Below are positions 2,424 through 60,325 of a DNA stretch of 64,000 nucleotides, piece after piece. A program made the position numbers and the translations under genes. Source of the stretch: Gemmatimonadales bacterium (GTDB lineage Bacteria > Gemmatimonadota > Gemmatimonadetes > Gemmatimonadales > GWC2-71-9); NCBI GenBank assembly GCA_041741375.1, contig JBGSKF010000151.1, positions 696 to 64,695 of the forward strand. The letters are read 5' to 3'. How positions within the stretch are numbered: the first letter of the stretch is position 1; each line of letters begins with the position of its first letter. The notes under the pieces are model-generated. The model made no database searches, was not told where the DNA came from, and saw only the letters and a program-made list of their open reading frames with translations.

Positions 2424-3113
2424 ATGACGGATATCGCACAATTTGTTGACGCGGTCAAGCGGGGTGACCTCGGAAAGGTGGAGCTGCTTCTGGCCCGGGA
2501 GCGGGATCTGGTTCGCGCCACGGATGACCATGGTGTCTCCGTCATTCTCCTCGCCCTCTATCATCGGCATCCCGCCGTGGCGGAGGCACTGGTTTCCCGG
2601 CGCACCCGGCTCTCGATGCCCGAAGCGTGCGCCCTCGGCCGGCTCGATGAGGCCCGGTCCATCATCGCCGCGAACAAGGAGCATGCCCGGATGCCCGCGC
2701 CGGACGGACACACGCCGCTCGGCCTCGCCTCCTTTTTCGGACATGTCGAGATGGTGGCCCTCCTGCTGGACAACGGGGCGGACCCGACGATTCCGTCGGC
2801 GAATTCGATGCATGTGACTCCGCTGCACAGTGCGGTGGCCGTGGCCGAGCCCGATCACGCACTCGCGAATGTGCGCCAGCTGCTGGCGCACGGGGCGGAC
2901 CCCGACGCGAAGCAGCAGGGGGGGTGGACGGCGCTGCACGCGGCGGCGCAACGCGGGCTGCGGGACGTTGTGGCCGCTCTGCTGGAGGCCGGGGCGAGCC
3001 CCGCGCCGGTTTCCGATGACGGGATCACCCCCGCCATGCTGGCGCGGAAGGGGGGACTGGAGAGCCTGGCCGCCTCCCTGGAGAGCCGGAAAACAGTGAA
3101 CAGTGAACAATGA
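2424..3113 (+). CDS. ankyrin repeat protein
   Basis: Repeated GxTPLH/GWTALHAAA..G..L..GADP ankyrin motifs; start MTDIAQF after a GGGAG RBS. Confidence 0.9.
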   Translation: MTDIAQFVDAVKRGDLGKVELLLARERDLVRATDDHGVSVILLALYHRHPAVAEALVSRRTRLSMPEACALGRLDEARSIIAANKEHARMPAPDGHTPLGLASFFGHVEMVALLLDNGADPTIPSANSMHVTPLHSAVAVAEPDHALANVRQLLAHGADPDAKQQGGWTALHAAAQRGLRDVVAALLEAGASPAPVSDDGITPAMLARKGGLESLAASLESRKTVNSEQ

Positions 3114-3163
3114 ACGTGAACAATGAACAGTGAACAATGAACAATGAACAATGAACAGTGAAC
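3092..3163 (+). repeat. heptamer tandem array (AACARTG)n, about 10 copies, overlapping the ankyrin stop
   Basis: aacagtg aacagtg aacaatg aacgtg aacaatg aacagtg aacaatg... read directly. Confidence 0.95.
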
Positions 3164-3223: not shown

Positions 3224-3225
3224 GA

Positions 3226-3317
3226 TTCCCTATTCCCTGTTCCCTATTCCCTATTCCCTATTCCCTATTCCCTATTCCCTATTCCCTATTCCATATTCCT
3301 GACACCCTACTCCCTGC
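3226..3317 (-). repeat. heptamer array (TTCCCTA)n, i.e. (TAGGGAA)n downstream of arginase
   Basis: About 10 near-perfect TTCCCTA copies followed by CCCTACT CCCTGCT. Confidence 0.95.
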
Positions 3318-4239: not shown

Positions 4240-4284
4240 ACAATGGACAATGAGCAATGAACAATGAACAATGAACCATGAACC
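4240..4284. repeat. heptamer array (ACAATGA)n, about 6 copies, immediately upstream of the arginase start
   Basis: acaatgg acaatga gcaatga acaatga acaatga accatga. Confidence 0.93.
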
Positions 4285-26738: not shown

Positions 26739-26810
<72 letters not shown>

Positions 26811-27064
26811 CTTCCCATCCCAACACTCCTTGATTGGCCCAAGTGCGTCGCTCGTCGGTGGAGCTGCGGCCCTGCGGGCCTCGCTCTCCTCCGCGCCGTG
26901 GGCGCTCCGGATCGATTCCGACCGGCGCCTCTCTCCCGTCCGTCCCTCCATGTGGGGTCCCGGTGCGTCGCTCGTCGGTGGAGCCCGGGCCCTGCGGGCC
27001 TCGCTCTCCTCCGCGCCTGCCGGCGCTCCGGACCGATTCCGACCGGCGCCTCTCTCCCGTCCGT
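26811..27064 (+). repeat. tRNA-linked tandem repeat, two units of about 120 bp, each ending in a copy of the tRNA-Cys 3' end
   Basis: accggcgcct at 26801, 26921 and 27042; units beginning gtgcgtcgctcgtcggtggagc at 26843 and 26963 are near-identical. Confidence 0.9.
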
Positions 27065-27472
27065 TCGTCCCTGTGGGCCCTTGGGGGCGTGCCGCATGAG
27101 GGGGTAGGGAAAGTGCTCCCGTGACCGGCCCGGGATCGTTCGGGCCGGGTGCGGAACCACCAGTCAATTCGGCGACGATCCTTGATGGCGAAGAACCTTG
27201 AGCTGAACATCAATTCATTGACGCTCAATGACATATCTGAGGGGAAGGTGCCTTTCTCCGGGTGTGGTGTGTGGCTCCGGTTGGGTCGATCGTCTCCGTC
27301 CTTGGGCGGGGCACCGTGCCTCCGGCCACTCATCCTCACCCGTCTCCAGGTACAGCATCCACCCCATGCAGGGGCTGCTCCCCGGAACGCAGCCCGAATG
27401 CACGCAAATGGCTCTTGTGAAATCCCGGCTCTCGTGACATTGTCAAGAGACGCCGGTTTCCGGAGGTTCCCC

Positions 27473-29810: not shown

Positions 29811-29855
29811 CCCTACTCCCCACTCCCTACTCCCTACTCCCTACTCCCTACTCCC
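29811..29855 (-). repeat. heptamer array (CCCTACT)x6, supplies the stop codon of the second symporter
   Basis: Read directly; the minus-strand TAG at 29841-29843 lies inside the array. Confidence 0.95.
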
Positions 29856-34476: not shown

Positions 34477-34560
34477 AGGGAATAGCGAGAAGGAATAGGG
34501 AGTAGGGGAAGGCGAAACCCTATTCCCTGCATTCCCTACTCCCCATTCCCTGCTCCCTAC
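34477..34560. repeat. inverted pair of heptamer arrays (GGAATAG/GGAGTAG ... CCCTATT/CCCTACT) between divergent tkt and HNH genes
   Basis: gggaatag..ggaatagggagtagggg followed by ccctattccctg..ttccctactccccattccctgctccctac. Confidence 0.85.
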
Positions 34561-34676
34561 GTCCCCCACCCTGCCCCCAACCCCGAGGAGGGGCTATTTT
34601 GCTTCCGTCGGCTCCGGGGACGTCAACGGGACGCCCCGGTGTGCACGATCATGGACATTCAGGGTCGAGAGGTGCC

Positions 34677-47782: not shown

Positions 47783-47814
47783 GAAGTTTGAAGTTCGAAG
47801 TTTGAAGTTCGAAG
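47783..47814. repeat. heptamer array (GAAGTTY)x4.5
   Basis: gaagttt gaagttc gaagttt gaagttc gaag; same family at 39027-39043 (minus strand) and 60139-60157. Confidence 0.9.
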
Positions 47815-48213: not shown

Positions 48214-48254
48214 CCCTACTCCCTACTCCCTACTCCCTACTCCCTACTCCCTAC
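48214..48254 (-). repeat. heptamer array (CCCTACT)x6, supplies the rho stop codon
   Basis: Five perfect copies plus one partial; minus-strand TAG at 48251-48253. Confidence 0.95.
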
Positions 48255-49492
48255 CTGAGTCCCCGCGCCACCTCTTCCAGCAGGGCCGGTGTCGACTGCA
48301 TCACCGGCACGTGCGCAAGATCCTTGCGTAAGGTCGCCGCACGCTCCAACTCTTCGGGGGTGAGGAGGAGTTCCTCGCGCCGAGTCCCGCTGGCCGCCAG
48401 GTCGATCGCGGGGTAGATCCGGCGCTCCGCGAGCCCGCGATTGAGCACCACCTCGCTGTTGCCTGTCCCCTTGAACTCCTCGAAGATGACCTGGTCGAGC
48501 CGGGAACCGGTGTCGATCAGGGCGGTGGCGATGATCGTCAGCGAGCCGCCGCCGGTCTGCGGGTCCACTGCCCGGGCGCTTCCGAAGAACCGCTTCGGCG
48601 CCTCCATGGCCTCGGCGTCGAGACCGCCCGACAGGGTCCGGCCCGATCCCCGTTCCGTGGTGTTGTAGGCCCGGGCCAGCCGGGTGAGGGAGTCGAGCAC
48701 CAGCACCACGTTCCCCCCGCATTCGACCTCGCGCCGTGCCCGCTCCAAGGTCATTTCCGCCAGCAACGTGTGCTGCTCGGGGGGGGAATCGAAGCTCGAC
48801 GCGACGACCTCGCCCACGCCGACCGTCTCCATGTCGGTGACTTCCTCCGGGCGTTCGTCCACCAGGAGGATGAACAAACGGGTATCGGGATAGTTGGCCG
48901 CCACGCCGGAGGCGATCGACTGGAGGATGGTGGTCTTTCCCGCCTTGGCCGGCGCCACGATGAGGGTGCGCTGGCCCCAGCCCACCGGCGCAAAGAGATC
49001 GATGGCGCGATTGATCATCCGGAAGGGCTTGGGGAGCGACTCATGGTCCAGACGCATCCGTTCCCGCGGGGCCACGGCGCGAAGCTTGGTGAAGTCGGGG
49101 CGCCTCTCGATGGAGGAGGGGTCCCGCCCGTTCACGGTCAGCACCTCGGTCACGACCGTCCCCTGTCTCCCGCTCCCCCCCCCCCCATTGCCGCCACCGT
49201 TGGGACGACCCCGACCCTGTCTCCCCCGCCCGCGGTTCCTCCGTCCCCGACCCGCCCGGCCGTTGCCGTCCGCACCACCCGGTTCGGATGGGGAAGGCGG
49301 CCCCCCGATCCTCCCGGTCACTTCGTCGCCGGCCCGGAGTCCGAGGCGCCGAATCAAGGCACCCGGAATGACCGGGTCGGAGGGAGTCGGGAGATACCCC
49401 GCTTCCCGGGTCCGCAACACACCATCGCCACTATTTCCCCGCGACCCGAACGCCAGCCATCCCTGGACCGCATTGCCTTCTTGAGTGGTCAC
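48251..49492 (-). CDS. rho: transcription termination factor Rho, atypical (no N-terminal helical bundle, Gly/Arg-rich insert)
   Basis: [26 protein letters not shown]-loop [16 protein letters not shown] and SGTRREELL; GTG start after AAAGGA. Confidence 0.9.
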
Positions 49493-49574
49493 CGACAGAC
49501 TTCCTTTCTCCGTTGTTTCACGATGGGGCGCGCAGTGCGCCCGGTTCCCATCCCGTACCGTGGAGGATGTTTTG

Positions 49575-51140
49575 ATGCGCTCTCTGGTTCCGCTCTGTGC
49601 CCTCGTGGTCGGCCTCTTACCCGTCCCCGCCGTGGCCCAGACTCTCCCGGTCGAGAGTCCGGTCCTGCGCCGGATCTGGGAGGTGGGAATGCAATCCTCC
49701 CAGGTCGACCCCCTGATCCAGACCCTCACCGATTCGATCGGTCCCCGGCTCACCGGCACGCCGGGGATGGAACGCGGCCAGGCCTGGCTCCAGGCCATGT
49801 ACCGCCAGTGGGGCATCCCCGCCCGGGCCGAGCAGTATGGCACCTGGCTGGGCTGGCGGCGCGGCACGACCCATGTGGACCTGATCGCTCCCCGGGTCCG
49901 CTCCCTGGAGGGCATGATGCTCGCCTGGAGCGCCGGCACCGGGGGCCGTCCGGTTCAGGGGGCGGTGGTGCTCCTCCCTGATCTTCCCGACTCGGCGGCC
50001 TACGCCGCGTGGCTCCCGACGGTTCGCGGCAAGTTCGTGGCCCTCAGTGCTCCCGAGCCCACCTGCCGCCCCGAGGGAAATCTCCGGGAGTTCGGGCGAC
50101 CGGAAACGGTGACGGCTCTCCTCGACCAGCGGACCCGCATCCGGAACGACTGGACCGGCCGCGCCACCCGCACCGGATTCAACGCACGCACCCTCCCGGT
50201 TCACCTGGAAACCGCCGGCGCGGCGGGGGTGATCACGTCGCTCTGGTCCGGAGGATGGGGTACCACGCGCATCTTCCAGGCCCGGACCACCCGGGTTCCC
50301 ACCGTGGAGCTCAGTTGTGAGGACTACGGCCTGGTGACGCGACTCGCCGAGCGGGGCCAGTCCCCCACGATCCGGGTCACCGCCGATGCCGAGTTTCTGG
50401 GGGACGTCCCCGTCTACAACGTCATCGGGGAGATCCGCGGTTCCGAGCGTCCCGACGAGTATGTCATGCTCTCGGCCCACTTCGATTCGTGGGATGGCTC
50501 CAGTGGCGCCACGGACAACGGAACCGGCACGGTGACGATGCTCGAAGCGATGCGGATCCTCCGAGAGGTCTACCCAGCGCCCCGACGGACCATTCTGGTC
50601 GGGCACTGGAGTGGAGAAGAGCAGGGGCTCAACGGCTCACGAGCCTTCGCCGAGGACCACCCCGAGGTGGTGCGCGGACTCCAGGCGCTCTTCAATCAGG
50701 ACAACGGGACCGGACGGGTCGTCAACATGTCTGCGTCCGGTTTTGCCGGCGCCGCGCCCCGGATCGCCGGGTGGGTCAGCCGACTGCCCACAGAACTCTC
50801 GCAGCAGATCAATCTGTCCCTGCCCGGCGGGCCTGCGGGAGGGGGATCGGACCACGCGGCGTTCGTCTGCCACGGTGCCCCTGGGTTTTCGCTCGGTGCG
50901 CTGGGCTGGGACTATGGAACTTACACCTGGCACACCAATCGCGACACCTACGACAAGGTGATCCTGGATGAATTGAAATCGAATGCCACTCTGACCGCAA
51001 TGCTTGTCTACATGGCGAGCGAGGAGCCGGGGGAGACCTCCCGGGTCCAGCGCGTGGTGCCACCCACCCGTTCGGGGGCCCCCGGGACATGGCCCGCCTG
51101 CCAGAAGCCGGCGCGGTCCTTCGCCGAATCCACCCGCTGA
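49575..51140 (+). CDS. M28 family metallopeptidase (carboxypeptidase Q-like)
   Basis: Signal peptide; DSIGPRLTG, SAHFDSW, GATDNGTG, GEEQGL, GSDH and WHT..DT.DK. Confidence 0.9.
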   Translation: MRSLVPLCALVVGLLPVPAVAQTLPVESPVLRRIWEVGMQSSQVDPLIQTLTDSIGPRLTGTPGMERGQAWLQAMYRQWGIPARAEQYGTWLGWRRGTTHVDLIAPRVRSLEGMMLAWSAGTGGRPVQGAVVLLPDLPDSAAYAAWLPTVRGKFVALSAPEPTCRPEGNLREFGRPETVTALLDQRTRIRNDWTGRATRTGFNARTLPVHLETAGAAGVITSLWSGGWGTTRIFQARTTRVPTVELSCEDYGLVTRLAERGQSPTIRVTADAEFLGDVPVYNVIGEIRGSERPDEYVMLSAHFDSWDGSSGATDNGTGTVTMLEAMRILREVYPAPRRTILVGHWSGEEQGLNGSRAFAEDHPEVVRGLQALFNQDNGTGRVVNMSASGFAGAAPRIAGWVSRLPTELSQQINLSLPGGPAGGGSDHAAFVCHGAPGFSLGALGWDYGTYTWHTNRDTYDKVILDELKSNATLTAMLVYMASEEPGETSRVQRVVPPTRSGAPGTWPACQKPARSFAESTR

Positions 51141-51145
51141 TGGGA

Positions 51146-51190
51146 GGAGCAGGGAGCAGGGAGGAGGGAGTAGGGAATAGGGAGTAGGGG
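51146..51190 (+). repeat. heptamer array (GGAGNAG)x6 after the M28 stop
   Basis: ggagcag ggagcag ggaggag ggagtag ggaatag ggagtag. Confidence 0.9.
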
Positions 51191-52739: not shown

Positions 52740-52774
52740 TTCCCTACTCCCTATCGCCTACTCCCTATCGCCTA
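52740..52774 (+). repeat. heptamer array (YTCCCTA/TCGCCTA)x5 before the ABC ATPase RBS
   Basis: ttcccta ctcccta tcgccta ctcccta tcgccta. Confidence 0.9.
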
Positions 52775-52788
52775 CCTTGGAGCTCCCC

Positions 52789-56067: not shown

Positions 56068-56144
56068 ATTCCTCCCCTGGGACGCCGCCGGTGCCGCAAA
56101 GGGCCCGACGGTGTCCCCCGGGGCCTCCAACGGAAACACACACC

Positions 56145-56807
56145 ATGATCCGCCTGATCAACATCGAAAAGTCCTATCCCACCGGACCCTCCCGGACCTG
56201 GGTGCTCCGGCAGGTCTCGATCGAGATCGCCGCGGGGGAGTTCGTCACCATCATGGGTCCCTCGGGTGCCGGCAAGTCCACCCTGCTCGGCATCCTCGGG
56301 ATGCTCGACGCCGAGTGGAGCGGGGAGTACCACCTGGACGACCACCCCGTCCACGCGATGAAGCAGCGTCAGCGGGCCGAACTGAACAAGGCGATGATCG
56401 GATTCGTCTTCCAGCAATACCACCTCCTCGACAGCCTCACCGTCTACGAAAACCTCGAGACTCCCCTCTCCTACCGCAATTACAGCCGGGCCGAGCGCCA
56501 GTCCCGCGTGGCGGACGTGCTCGACCGCTTCCGGATCGTCGGAAAGAAGGACCTCTTTCCCTCGCAGCTCTCCGGCGGGCAGCAACAGCTCGTGGGGGTG
56601 GCCCGGGCCGTCATGGCCGAGCCCAAGATCATCCTGGCCGACGAACCGACCGGAAACCTGCACTCCACCCAGGCCCGGGAGATCATGGAACTCTTCCGGG
56701 AACTGAACCAGGGCGGCACCACGATCGTGCAGGTAACCCACAGCGAGGAAAACGCCCGGTACGGCACCCGGGTGATCCAATTGAAGGATGGATGGGTGGT
56801 GGCGTAG
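56145..56807 (+). CDS. ABC transporter ATP-binding protein (second)
   Basis: GPSGAGKST, LSGGQQQ and ADEPTGNLH. Confidence 0.93.
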   Translation: MIRLINIEKSYPTGPSRTWVLRQVSIEIAAGEFVTIMGPSGAGKSTLLGILGMLDAEWSGEYHLDDHPVHAMKQRQRAELNKAMIGFVFQQYHLLDSLTVYENLETPLSYRNYSRAERQSRVADVLDRFRIVGKKDLFPSQLSGGQQQLVGVARAVMAEPKIILADEPTGNLHSTQAREIMELFRELNQGGTTIVQVTHSEENARYGTRVIQLKDGWVVA

Positions 56808-56875
56808 GCGGTAGGCGATAGGCGGTGGGCGGTAGGGGAACGTAGGCGGTAGGTGACGGGTGGGAGGCACAGGGG
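56805..56875 (+). repeat. left arm (TAGGCGG)n of an inverted repeat flanking the four-helix-bundle gene
   Basis: taggcgg taggcga taggcgg tgggcgg ... taggcgg; the first TAG is the ATPase stop. Confidence 0.92.
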
Positions 56876-56946
56876 CTGCGACAAGAGGATGGTGGTCGCG
56901 CGATTGTGGTCCTTCCACGAAGGGCCGGTGGTGATAGCATTCCCTG

Positions 56947-57339
56947 ATGGGGAATCAGGCGACGTCCTTCCGGGACCTGTTGGTGTGGCAGCGTGCCATG
57001 GATGCATCGGTGGAGGTGCTCCGGCTCGCCCGGATCCTCCCACGGGAGCTCCGGGATAGTCTCGGGGACCAGATGCGCCGGGCGGCGATCTCGGTCGTGA
57101 GCAATATTGCCGAGGGGCACGGCAGGCGGCACCGGAAGGAGTATATTCATCATGTTGCCATTGCCAGCGGCTCGCTGAAGGAAATGGAAACTCAGTTGCT
57201 GTTGCTGCGGAGACATGACTCGCGATTCGCGGAGGATGTCGATCGGATTCTGGCCATCACTGACGAAACGGGCAGGATGCTGACAGGACTGTATCGGGCG
57301 CTCAAAAGTCCACGATCAACTCCCGACACCCGTGGATGA
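56947..57339 (+). CDS. four helix bundle protein (23S rRNA IVS protein / Avd-like, TIGR02436 family)
   Basis: FRDLLVWQRAM, DQMRRAAISVVSNIAEG and IASGSLKEMETQL family motifs. Confidence 0.92.
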   Translation: MGNQATSFRDLLVWQRAMDASVEVLRLARILPRELRDSLGDQMRRAAISVVSNIAEGHGRRHRKEYIHHVAIASGSLKEMETQLLLLRRHDSRFAEDVDRILAITDETGRMLTGLYRALKSPRSTPDTRG

Positions 57340-57360
57340 TCAGGCTATCCTGTGGTTGAC

Positions 57361-57443
57361 CCCCGTCGCCTCTCGCGTCCTCTATGGCCCACCGCCTACC
57401 ACCTTCTCTATCGCCGACCGCCTACCGCCAACCGCCTATTCCT
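57361..57443 (+). repeat. right arm (CCGCCTA)n of the inverted repeat, ending at the regulator ATG
   Basis: ccgccta..tcgccga ccgccta ccgccaa ccgccta ttcct-ATG. Confidence 0.9.
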
Positions 57444-58802
57444 ATGCTCCCCACGATCTTGATTGCTGAGGATCAGCCCGACGTCCTCGAGGCCCTCCGG
57501 CTCCTCCTCAAGTCGGAAGGGTATCGAACCGTCACGGCGCATGTGCCCGAGGGGGTCCTGGCCCTCCTCGAACGGGAGCAGGTGGACGCGGCCCTGATCG
57601 ATCTCAACTACACCCGGGACACCACCTCGGGCCGGGAGGGGCTCGATCTTCTGTCGCGGATTCAGGCCGCCGATGCGACTCTTCCCGTCATCGTCATGAC
57701 CGCGTGGGGCAGCGTGGACAAGGCGGTGCAGGCCATGCAACTCGGCGCCCGCGACTTCGTCGAGAAGCCGTGGGACAACGCCCGTCTCCTCGCCACCGTG
57801 CGCACCCAGGTCGAACTCTCCCGCGCCCTCCGGCTCGGCCAGCGCCTGGCCTCCGAGAACCGGATGCTGCGGCAGGAGGGCCTTCCCGATCTGGTCGCCG
57901 AGTCGGGCGCCATGCGTCCGGTGGTGGAGATCATGAAGCAGGTGGCGCCGAGTGACGCCAATGTGCTCATCACCGGGGAGCATGGGACCGGGAAGGAGGT
58001 GGTGGCCCGCTGGCTCCACGCCACGAGCGGCCGCGCCGAGAAACCCCTGGTGATAGTGAACGCCGGAGGACTCTCCGAGGGGGTGTTCGAGAGTGAACTC
58101 TTCGGGCATGTGAAGGGCGCCTTCACCGACGCCAAGACCGACCGGATCGGCCGCTTCGAAATGGCCGATGGGGGAACCCTCTTCCTCGACGAAATCGCGA
58201 ATATTGGCCTGGCGCAGCAGGCTCGGCTCCTCCGGGTGCTCCAGGAGGGGGAGCTGGAGCGGGTCGGCTCGTCCCGGACCCGTCATGTGGACGTGCGCGT
58301 GATCGCGGCGACCAACGCCGATCTCCCTGCCGAGGTGGCATCGGGCCGGTTCCGGGAAGATCTCCTCTTCCGGCTGAACACGATCGAGATCGCGCTCCCT
58401 CCGCTTCGGGCTCGCGGAGCCGATCTCCTGCCCCTGGCCGAGGGGTTCCTGGCACGGTTTCGCCGGAAGTATGGCAAGGCCCTCACCGGGTTTGCCGACG
58501 ATGCGGTGGCGGCCCTTCGACGCCACCCTTGGCCCGGCAACGTGCGCGAACTCGAGCATGCGGTGGAACGGGGAGTGCTGATGGCGCGGGGGACGACGAT
58601 GACCGCACCCGACCTCGCCCTACCCGGGACGTCCGCGGCGGAGGTGCCGTCCCCCTCCGGCGGACGGACCCTGGAGGAGACCGAGCGCGAAGTGATCCGC
58701 GCGGCCCTCACCCGGCATGACGGAAACGTGAGTTCCGCCGCCGCCGAGCTCGGCCTGAGCCGGAGTGCGCTCTACCGGCGTTTGCAGCGTCTCGGCCTGT
58801 GA
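57444..58802 (+). CDS. sigma54-dependent response regulator (NtrC family)
   Basis: REC domain, GEHGTGKE, ESELFGH, GAFTDA, LFLDEI, WPGNVREL and Fis-type HTH. Confidence 0.95.
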   Translation: MLPTILIAEDQPDVLEALRLLLKSEGYRTVTAHVPEGVLALLEREQVDAALIDLNYTRDTTSGREGLDLLSRIQAADATLPVIVMTAWGSVDKAVQAMQLGARDFVEKPWDNARLLATVRTQVELSRALRLGQRLASENRMLRQEGLPDLVAESGAMRPVVEIMKQVAPSDANVLITGEHGTGKEVVARWLHATSGRAEKPLVIVNAGGLSEGVFESELFGHVKGAFTDAKTDRIGRFEMADGGTLFLDEIANIGLAQQARLLRVLQEGELERVGSSRTRHVDVRVIAATNADLPAEVASGRFREDLLFRLNTIEIALPPLRARGADLLPLAEGFLARFRRKYGKALTGFADDAVAALRRHPWPGNVRELEHAVERGVLMARGTTMTAPDLALPGTSAAEVPSPSGGRTLEETEREVIRAALTRHDGNVSSAAAELGLSRSALYRRLQRLGL

Positions 58803-60147: not shown

Positions 60148-60325
60148 AGTGTGAAGTCGTAGGGGCGAATTGCATTCGCCCTGCTCAAACGCCAAGGCGC
60201 CAGGACGCAGTGACGCGAGGTGTATGGAGGCCACGAAAGGCTCCCAGTCGTGGATTCCCGCGTGCGCGGGAATGACGGGCATTACTCCCCACTCCCCATT
60301 CCCCACTCCCTACTCCCTTTCCCTG
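60139..60325. repeat. composite intergenic repeat mosaic: GAAGTKT heptamers, GTAG-REP, ACGCNAGG-like octamers, dRS3-like palindrome, CTCCCMA heptamers
   Basis: Units at 60139-60157, 60159-60182, 60189-60220, 60251-60276 and 60285-60325 respectively. Confidence 0.85.

Follow-up and report, generated by a model that had tools for sequence, protein, structure and literature searches.

Why does a small protein gene lie between two complementary arrays of tandem heptamers in the middle of a bacterial operon? The question is raised by positions 56805-57438 of a 64,000-nt stretch of DNA from a Gemmatimonadales bacterium (GenBank assembly GCA_041741375.1, contig JBGSKF010000151.1, positions 696 to 64,695 of the forward strand), the whole of which was analysed and is referred to here as the window. 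Its G+C content, 66.9%, equals that of the 3.86-Mb, 250-contig source genome (G000). The gene belongs to family PF05635, and on balance we favour the view that gene and arms together form an intervening-sequence-type selfish cassette, here placed in an mRNA operon, which is inherited with its arms and whose arms would pair in transcripts that cross it. The locus is made up as follows, arms being given without strand.

56091-56807, + strand: gene of an ABC-transporter ATPase (PF00005, E 1.9e-31)
56805-56873: left (5') arm, G-rich; tandem array, inverted pairs, paired in the predicted fold
56874-56946, + strand: leader between the left arm and the open reading frame (ORF), from the sequence
56947-57339, + strand: gene of a 130-aa four-helix-bundle protein (PF05635 / TIGR02436; S23p / 'IVP' family), from profile matches
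57349-57438: right (3') arm, C-rich, of CCGCCTA-type heptamers, complement of the left arm; tandem array, inverted pairs, predicted fold
57444-58802, + strand: gene of a sigma-54-dependent response regulator (Response_reg, Sigma54_activat, HTH_8)

The operon encodes, in order, an HlyD-like adaptor, an ABC ATPase, a MacB-type permease, an ABC ATPase, the cassette, the sigma-54 regulator and a histidine kinase; the cassette site, between the ABC ATPase and response-regulator genes, is not in a 23S rRNA helix. The original prediction, made from the letters of the window, had the left arm start exactly at the ATPase stop codon and a mirrored right arm end at the regulator ATG. This anatomy was confirmed: the first TAGGCGG unit opens with the TAG itself (56805-56807), and the last right-arm unit ends at 57438, stopping 5 nt short of the ATG at 57444. 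The Response_reg domain begins at residue 5 of the regulator ORF (57444-58802). From its 5' end, the left arm consists of TAGGCGG-type heptamers, an ACG interruption, further heptamer-like units and then GAGGCAC. Tandem Repeats Finder (TRF) called a period-7 array of 4.7 copies of GTAGGCG at 56804-56836 and, as its complement, 4.4 copies of CTACCGC at 57408-57438. An inverted-repeat search recovered an outer arm pair (56805-56835 with 57408-57438; 31 nt, 87% complementary) and an inner one (56846-56873 with 57349-57376; 28 nt, 71% complementary).

An RNA stem around the gene had also been predicted, and the computed fold of 56795-57455 agrees with it. The arms are paired in both the minimum free energy (MFE) and the centroid structure, and the MFE is -318.8 kcal/mol, compared to a mean of -286.5 for shuffled sequences (n = 20, z -4.3). 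Promoter calling on the + strand between 56000 and 58000 gave no sigma-70-like site. Among the 33 leaders of related cassettes described below, no common motif was apparent by eye, no alignment or motif search having been made; AT-rich patches were seen by eye in some of them. Short-read contigs end or begin within the left heptamer array (56807-56832), where the arms break assemblies.

To what family does the encoded protein belong? The product of 56947-57339 matches PF05635 over profile positions 1-106 of 106 (E 3.2e-30; 104.9 bits, cut-off 33.8) and TIGR02436 with 102.9 bits (cut-off 24), both over cut-off, which upholds the proposed membership in the family of rRNA-intervening-sequence proteins. 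Its conserved RxxxSxxxNxxE motif reads QMRRAAISVVSNIAEG, with R, S, N and E in register; where the family motif is given as GxxRxxxSxxxNxxE in a passage of PMC3936711, the window protein has Q at the position of the G. Residues Q42, E56 and E79 are invariant among 30 relatives. By sequence similarity, the nearest solved chain is 2gsc (XCC0516; E 1.3e-14), and the solved relatives 2gsc and 2rld were each deposited with 5 chains. Likeness to these two suggests a four-helix-bundle fold with a pentameric ring; XCC0516 is described as a toroidal homopentamer in a passage of PMC4990558. Kinship to Avd, the accessory protein of diversity-generating retroelements (DGRs), had been proposed as well. A weak relation stands, by four-helix-bundle likeness, through a sub-threshold match to the Avd equivalog NF033474 and the literature, but not at the equivalog level (21.8 bits, cut-off 80). 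Avd forms pentamers. Unlike the genomic setting of DGR Avd, the genome here holds no reverse transcriptase (0 matches to PF00078).

How specific is the packaging to this gene family? Period-7 arrays of at least three copies are common in the genome: TRF yielded 725 merged arrays over the 3.86 Mb, which divide into 111 unit classes; the three largest classes account for 152, 65 and 50 TRF array rows. Same-unit neighbouring arrays less than 700 nt apart are inverted in 34 cases and direct in 9. The position of the gene between two of many common intergenic arrays, about ten others of which occur in the window, might be a matter of chance. All four PF05635 loci of the genome (two intact, two truncated), however, lie between complementary arrays, and the unit is different at each (AGGACAT/CCTCTGT; GTAGGCG/CTACCGC; TGAACAA/TTGTTCA; GAGTGAG/TCTCACT), whereas complementary heptamer arrays were found within 200 nt of just 12 of 20000 random 360-nt genome segments. 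The packaging is seen, too, in array-poor genomes and in more than ten phyla, as described below. We regard the likelihood of coincidence as negligible.

The tandem short heptamers of cyanobacteria are known as short tandemly repeated repetitive (STRR) sequences. The arrays of this genome show STRR-like traits, being tandem 7-nt intergenic units in many dispersed arrays of few unit families. Those in the window other than the cassette arms are the following.

3092-3163, 3225-3299, 4240-4283, 29811-29855, 34518-34578: period-7 arrays
47783-47814, 48214-48254, 51146-51189, 52741-52775, 60284-60317: period-7 arrays

The arrays at 51146-51189 and 52741-52775 are complementary (GGAGTAG / TCCCTAC), G-first and 1551 nt apart, and flank the HlyD-like adaptor gene of the same operon. 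Elsewhere in the genome, a palindromic non-coding core of ~190 nt (fold -112.5 kcal/mol) occurs at 41 loci, for example G000:C105:18619-18812. A heptamer array lies within 150 nt of the core at 25 of the 41 loci, and many paired arrays enclose it; one copy lies just past the window end (G000:C151:65477-65547). This looks like a family of the miniature inverted-repeat transposable element (MITE) kind, nested in arrays.

Is the same arrangement found in related genomes? PF05635 is present in 26 of the 31 genomes of the order, G000 included. Arms were scored by aligning the upstream flank to the reverse-complemented downstream flank, with 300 mismatched-locus pairs as the control (maximum score 31). 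At 24 of 33 loci of related genomes, the arms scored above this maximum; the 33 include one locus (L023) from an unpublished genome, G016, on which no claim rests. The upstream arm usually ends 60-130 nt before the ORF, and the downstream arm usually begins 1-50 nt past the stop codon. Units vary between loci, with a length of 7 or 8 nt, and the two arms covary. At a few loci the arms are non-repetitive, comprising 56-80 nt of 88-94% identity, and because of these we take complementarity to be the constant feature and tandem repetition the usual means. Similar results were obtained for two paralog-rich relatives, G009 and G017, in which 18 of 25 loci score at least 37, over the control maximum of 31 (six of the 25 are also among the 33). 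Units differ among most of their paralogs, one of which has a 9-nt unit; a unit is shared by loci L194 and L196 of G009 and, likewise, by L203 and L207 of G017.

To extend the survey, one genome per species was scanned by pattern, and the best 80 of at least 593 relative-encoding stretches (from at least 600 stretches) were pooled with the 33 order-level loci. The phyla covered by the wider set are Gemmatimonadota, Acidobacteriota, Planctomycetota, Chloroflexota, Pseudomonadota, Bacteroidota, Bacillota, Cyanobacteriota, Verrucomicrobiota, Nitrospirota and others. Of the 113 loci in the pool, 60 have short-period arrays on both sides, 23 upstream only and 13 downstream only. The units are complementary at 50 loci when up to one mismatch is allowed and at 57 when two are; among these 57, the period is 7 at 50 and 8 at 7. 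Taken by itself, the wide set has 19 loci, out of 79 scored, that exceed the 99th percentile of mismatched controls, a threshold that is inflated because units of different loci resemble one another. Packaging of PF05635 genes in complementary arms thus recurs in more than ten phyla. The genome-wide flanking of family genes by inverted arrays that the original prediction called for is seen at 4/4 loci here and at 24/33 and 50-57/113 elsewhere.

Two sets of observations in relatives concern arrays or gene fragments beside or apart from intact cassettes. At locus L011 (G002:C34:8408-11719), four partial profile matches (positions ~21-60 of the profile) lie downstream of an intact family gene, at ~1840-2350. 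Three of them are spaced 133 nt apart, each with a stop, and the same spacing separates TCTCACT arrays at 2063-2098 and 2196-2231; the pattern resembles that of a cassette fragment duplicated in tandem. Heptamer pairs with no gene, inverted or adjacent, were noted in short permease-ATPase gaps at L041 (G028), L044 (G012) and L047 (the unpublished G016), with units such as GGGATTG/CCCCAAT and CGGGTGT/GACACCT.

Do the arms follow a rule of order? Among the 57 loci with complementary units, the 5'-arm unit contains AG at 48 and CT at 9, and it has more G than C at 45, equal numbers at 6 and less G than C at 6. In the genome as a whole, inverted pairs less than 700 nt apart are G-first in 84 cases and C-first in 7; for pairs 700-2500 nt apart the numbers are 14 and 13. 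Coupling of an AG-rich upstream arm to gene orientation was considered and rejected, since a G-first pair reads G-first on both strands. The G-first arrangement is topology, not strand preference, and transcription or passage in either direction therefore meets the G-rich arm first.

Are the arms inherited with the protein? The units were compared with a tree of 99 proteins, from which the two truncated G000 loci and rows with a stop or fewer than 90 aa were left out. The seven 8-mer cassettes all belong to a single clade of 10 proteins (support 87 in the Shimodaira-Hasegawa-like approximate likelihood ratio test, SH-aLRT), and one genome, G020, carries both a 7-mer and an 8-mer cassette. The units AGGGA[G/A]T, AGGAT[C/T]N and AGGG[G/A]CT each recur in different phyla within a single protein clade. 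Identity between proteins correlates weakly and negatively with unit distance (Spearman -0.18; 3 of 2000 permutations as low); for pairs with different phylum labels, the order of the window counting as its own group, the value is -0.16 (19 of 2000 permutations as low). Because unit distance tracks protein identity, the arms are not merely taken over from the host site. Shared descent would be enough to account for this correlation.

A different reading of these data sees the arms as arrays to which the encoded protein binds. The pentamer ring would bind phased AG heptamers on single-stranded RNA or DNA, with the stem secondary; every paralog would be matched to a unit of its own, and the protein would autoregulate and also act in trans on the arrays, hundreds in number, that lack a gene. 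TRAP, which binds spaced triplets, provides a comparison for a ring protein on phased heptamers. The five chains of the solved relatives and the toroidal XCC0516 fit such a role, as do the retention of AG in 48/57 units while other positions vary, the distinct unit of each paralog within one genome, and the tracking of the protein tree by unit and period. Array length is consistent as well, with a mode of 31-32 nt, or ~4.5 units (105 of 889 arrays in this genome), and with cassette arms concentrated at 4.3-4.9 copies. Against this, co-inheritance alone explains the tree signal, and the arms of some cassettes are non-repetitive. The in-phase AG run per array has a broad mode of 4-5 (100 and 107 of 545 arrays), with no sharp peak at 5, and a sharp five-unit array length was for this reason rejected. 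Array density, moreover, did not track gene count. In small samples of 54-100 kb from each of eight relatives, there are 36 arrays per 100 kb in G017 (12 genes), 10 in G009 (13 genes) and 2 in G025 (8 genes), compared to 3-10 in four genomes without a family gene; a simple link of gene count to array density was rejected for these eight. In our judgement, binding arrays are a fairly unlikely explanation.

What does the orthologous junction look like in relatives? The site between the ATPase and regulator genes is polymorphic. In G002, of the same genus and with an ATPase 97% identical, the cassette and its unit are as in the window, the left arm has 19.7 copies (versus 4.7), and the gene is frameshifted by a 1-nt deletion. 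A contig from an independent study has the same 1-nt deletion, at 57078, a left array of greater length and, on the right, an additional ACCGCCT unit. In G009, G014 and G017, the junction holds a cassette in the opposite orientation, with other units and a protein of a different clade. These three proteins are mutually 45-47% identical; those of G009 and G014 are 33-36% identical to the window protein, and for that of G017 there was no tblastn match to the window protein at E 1e-5. The closest relative of the window protein is a Gemmatimonadales protein, 52% identical. The junction of G006 has a 5'-truncated gene remnant (GSLAELETH...VGRML...) between degenerate arms, and that of G001, of the same genus as the source, holds a few degenerate complementary heptamers only. 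The second intact cassette of G000 is also found in G002, with G001 matching one flank only. Given the two orientations and clades, the remnant and the degenerate arms, it follows that the junction has been occupied at least twice and that cassettes decay in place.

These data bear on the proposal that the cassette is a small mobile or excisable unit. Presence, absence, decay and two orientations at one junction fit that proposal; no clean empty site was found at the junction, G001 and G006 still holding degenerate arms or a remnant. The original prediction also named three findings that would speak against it, namely conservation of the gene without arms, relatives lacking arrays, and no stem, and on the sequence side none of these was obtained.

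How might such an insert be tolerated inside an operon? The cassette is one of a widespread type and consists of a PF05635/TIGR02436 gene between complementary arms, with the G-rich, AG-bearing arm 5' on either strand; the arms are usually tandem 7-nt units, with units of 8-9 nt in some clades and unique sequence in others. As we picture it, the cassette would be a selfish insertion that rarely duplicates or moves and that decays into gene-less paired arrays. In any crossing transcript, in either direction, the arms may pair into an imperfect stem of ~100 nt, which would loop the gene out and juxtapose the ATPase stop and the regulator start. The C-rich arm, synthesised last, would be paired at once and never left exposed, and because it would be hidden in this way the insert could be tolerable. 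In the original prediction the stem would thereby limit polarity, and the protein may bind or spread the heptamer arrays. In organisms with RNase III, the stem is probably cleaved in the way known from rRNA; because no RNase III was found in the order, the stem here is more likely kept as a structure or handled by another nuclease. As no transposase, duplication or near-identical copies were seen, it is the distribution of cassettes that suggests their mobility.

Several observations weigh against this account. Just 4 of the ~725 arrays in the genome enclose a family gene or remnant, so most paired arrays need another explanation or very old decay. A search of all six frames of the genome with a profile of 30 relatives, filters off, revealed no further gene remnants inside paired arrays beyond the 4 known loci (next match E = 17). 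At nine of the 33 order-level loci the arms do not outscore the controls, and 17 of the 113 pooled loci are without arrays. No target-site duplication was seen by eye at the cassette borders, no systematic search having been made. There is no transposase among the neighbours: consistent with what had been stated of the surroundings, no transposase or reverse transcriptase families were found among ten large ORFs scanned at 42-64 kb of the window. No near-identical copies were found, the closest paralogs within one genome of the two paralog-rich relatives being 72% identical. RNase III was absent from the G000 matches with PF14622, PF00636 and TIGR02191, and PF14622 matched 0/31 genomes of the order. 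PF14622 matched 8 of 14 control genomes, and completeness is 95% for G000 and 99-100% for several relatives in 3-10 contigs; the absence of the enzyme is even so not proven. Finally, arm mismatches are symmetric, with 94 of G·U type and 101 of A·C type (56 loci, 2575 aligned positions), and selection on RNA rather than DNA is for that reason not demonstrated.

The RNase III result bears on an alternative in which this enzyme excises the cassette from the operon transcript like an rRNA intervening sequence (IVS), releasing a separate RNA and two stem-capped mRNAs. The architecture is identical, the predicted stem is long, and cleavage is shown for the IVS of Coxiella, where, as described in passages of PMC4990558, the site of RNase III cleavage lies in the stem, at the first GACAGAT repeat upstream of S23p; cleavage of IVSs by RNase III is also cited there for Leptospira and Salmonella. 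However, as an RNase III gene was found neither in G000 (three models) nor in any of the 31 genomes of the order (PF14622), excision of this kind, which the original prediction had entertained, is doubtful in the lineage, and we consider it very unlikely for this cassette.

The symmetric mismatch spectrum, and the keeping of the architecture in an order without detectable RNase III, would also suit arms that act on DNA. The arms would then serve a mobile or recombining cassette as its terminal inverted repeats, for example as hairpin or cruciform targets or through double crossover between dispersed same-unit arrays, and pairing in RNA would be incidental. In line with this idea are the occupation of one junction by two protein lineages that face opposite ways, related cassettes in distant phyla, the dispersal of same-unit arrays (the classes of 152, 65 and 50 rows; ~90 matches of the AGGACAT array in G002) and the fact that arrays change by whole units. 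Yet neither within the cassette nor next to it was a recombinase or transposase found, inspection by eye showed no target-site duplication, and there are no recent copies, as the 72% identity of the closest paralogs indicates. We know of no catalytic motif in the small PF05635 protein. We rate a DNA-level role as rather improbable, on a par with binding arrays. Repeat recognition by the protein and a role of the arms in DNA are both viable alternatives, and each is compatible with the selfish cassette that we favour.

How does the cassette compare to known systems? Ralph & McClelland (1993) is a cited source on ORF-bearing IVSs of 23S rRNA. MITEs and the palindromes known as repetitive extragenic palindromes and bacterial interspersed mosaic elements (REP-BIME) resemble the cassette in being short, intergenic and dispersed, with inverted ends, sometimes within operons, and are thought to shape mRNA stability. 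Unlike them, the cassette has a conserved protein gene, tandem-array ends with copy-specific units, and no near-identical copies. The 23S rRNA IVSs of Leptospira, Coxiella and Brucella are also close, as portrayed in passages of Warrier et al. (2016, PMC4990558): they encode a protein of the same family (S23p is PF05635), the gene lies between complementary termini that form a long stem, the ORF is prone to decay, and the element is regarded as selfish. The Coxiella IVS even carries (GACAGAT)2-3 upstream of S23p, in a copy number that varies between strains (PMC4990558). The shared family, the complementary termini and the Coxiella heptamers support the link to rRNA IVSs that had been drawn from the window. 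In contrast to those IVSs, the cassette lies between protein genes of an operon, both of its arms are heptamer arrays, and its lineage lacks detectable RNase III.

Heptamer repeats have been described from other bacteria, namely GGGAATC in Xanthomonas and GGGGA(C/T)T in Nostoc (Rehm et al. 2015, PMC4692102) and TAACTGA in Beggiatoaceae (MacGregor 2015, PMC4679880). Like the arrays here, they are intergenic, present in hundreds of copies and variable in copy number. About four units are preferred in Xanthomonas and Nostoc, which the array length mode of 31-32 nt in this genome echoes, and 70-75 convergent (inverted) pairs are given for Xanthomonas (PMC4692102). The terms 'S23', 'intervening', 'four helix' and 'helix bundle' do not occur in the main texts of PMC4692102 and PMC4679880, supplementary tables being outside this scope; these main texts contain no PF05635 link and state no general pattern of a gene enclosed by paired units specific to its locus. 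The family, its rRNA context, the inverted termini, the Coxiella heptamers and genome-wide heptamer arrays, including inverted pairs (PMC4692102, PMC4679880), are already known. No published rule of complementary locus-specific heptamers around non-rRNA family members, no G-first rule and, apart from Coxiella, no link of the family to heptamer arrays at its flanks was found in a search that left most subscription journals and supplements outside.

A bolder idea joins these strands. PF05635 proteins could be the missing partner of bacterial heptamer repeats, in orthogonal pairs of pentamer and AG-phased 7- or 8-nt unit, with the G-first cassette as the founder of the hundreds of gene-less paired arrays, among them the STRR-like repeats of cyanobacteria, Xanthomonas, Beggiatoa and the present lineage. 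A templated repeat-addition step with an Avd-like protein is hinted at, because G-first topology is expected if G-rich repeats are added to both 3' ends of a break. We hold this to be quite unlikely, a long shot beside the two rivals above.

A gene for a Rho homologue lies at 48251-49939 of the window. An Rfam search of the window gave one tRNA as its sole match. A 121-nt direct repeat in two copies (91% match; 26843-27077) follows directly downstream of a tRNA gene at 26739-26810.

What would the cassette rule mean? For annotators and assemblers it is a warning, in that contigs break exactly at the arms. If the rule holds, family members would be predictable from sequence together with their cognate repeat, and experiments on binding, processing and polarity would be straightforward. 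Family members are known to sit inside cas operons (a passage of PMC3936711), and the rule would explain how such genes can lie within operons, CRISPR-cas loci and rRNA without breakage. Two puzzles, the role of the IVS ORF (S23p) and the reason why some bacterial genomes abound in tandem heptamers, may then be one.

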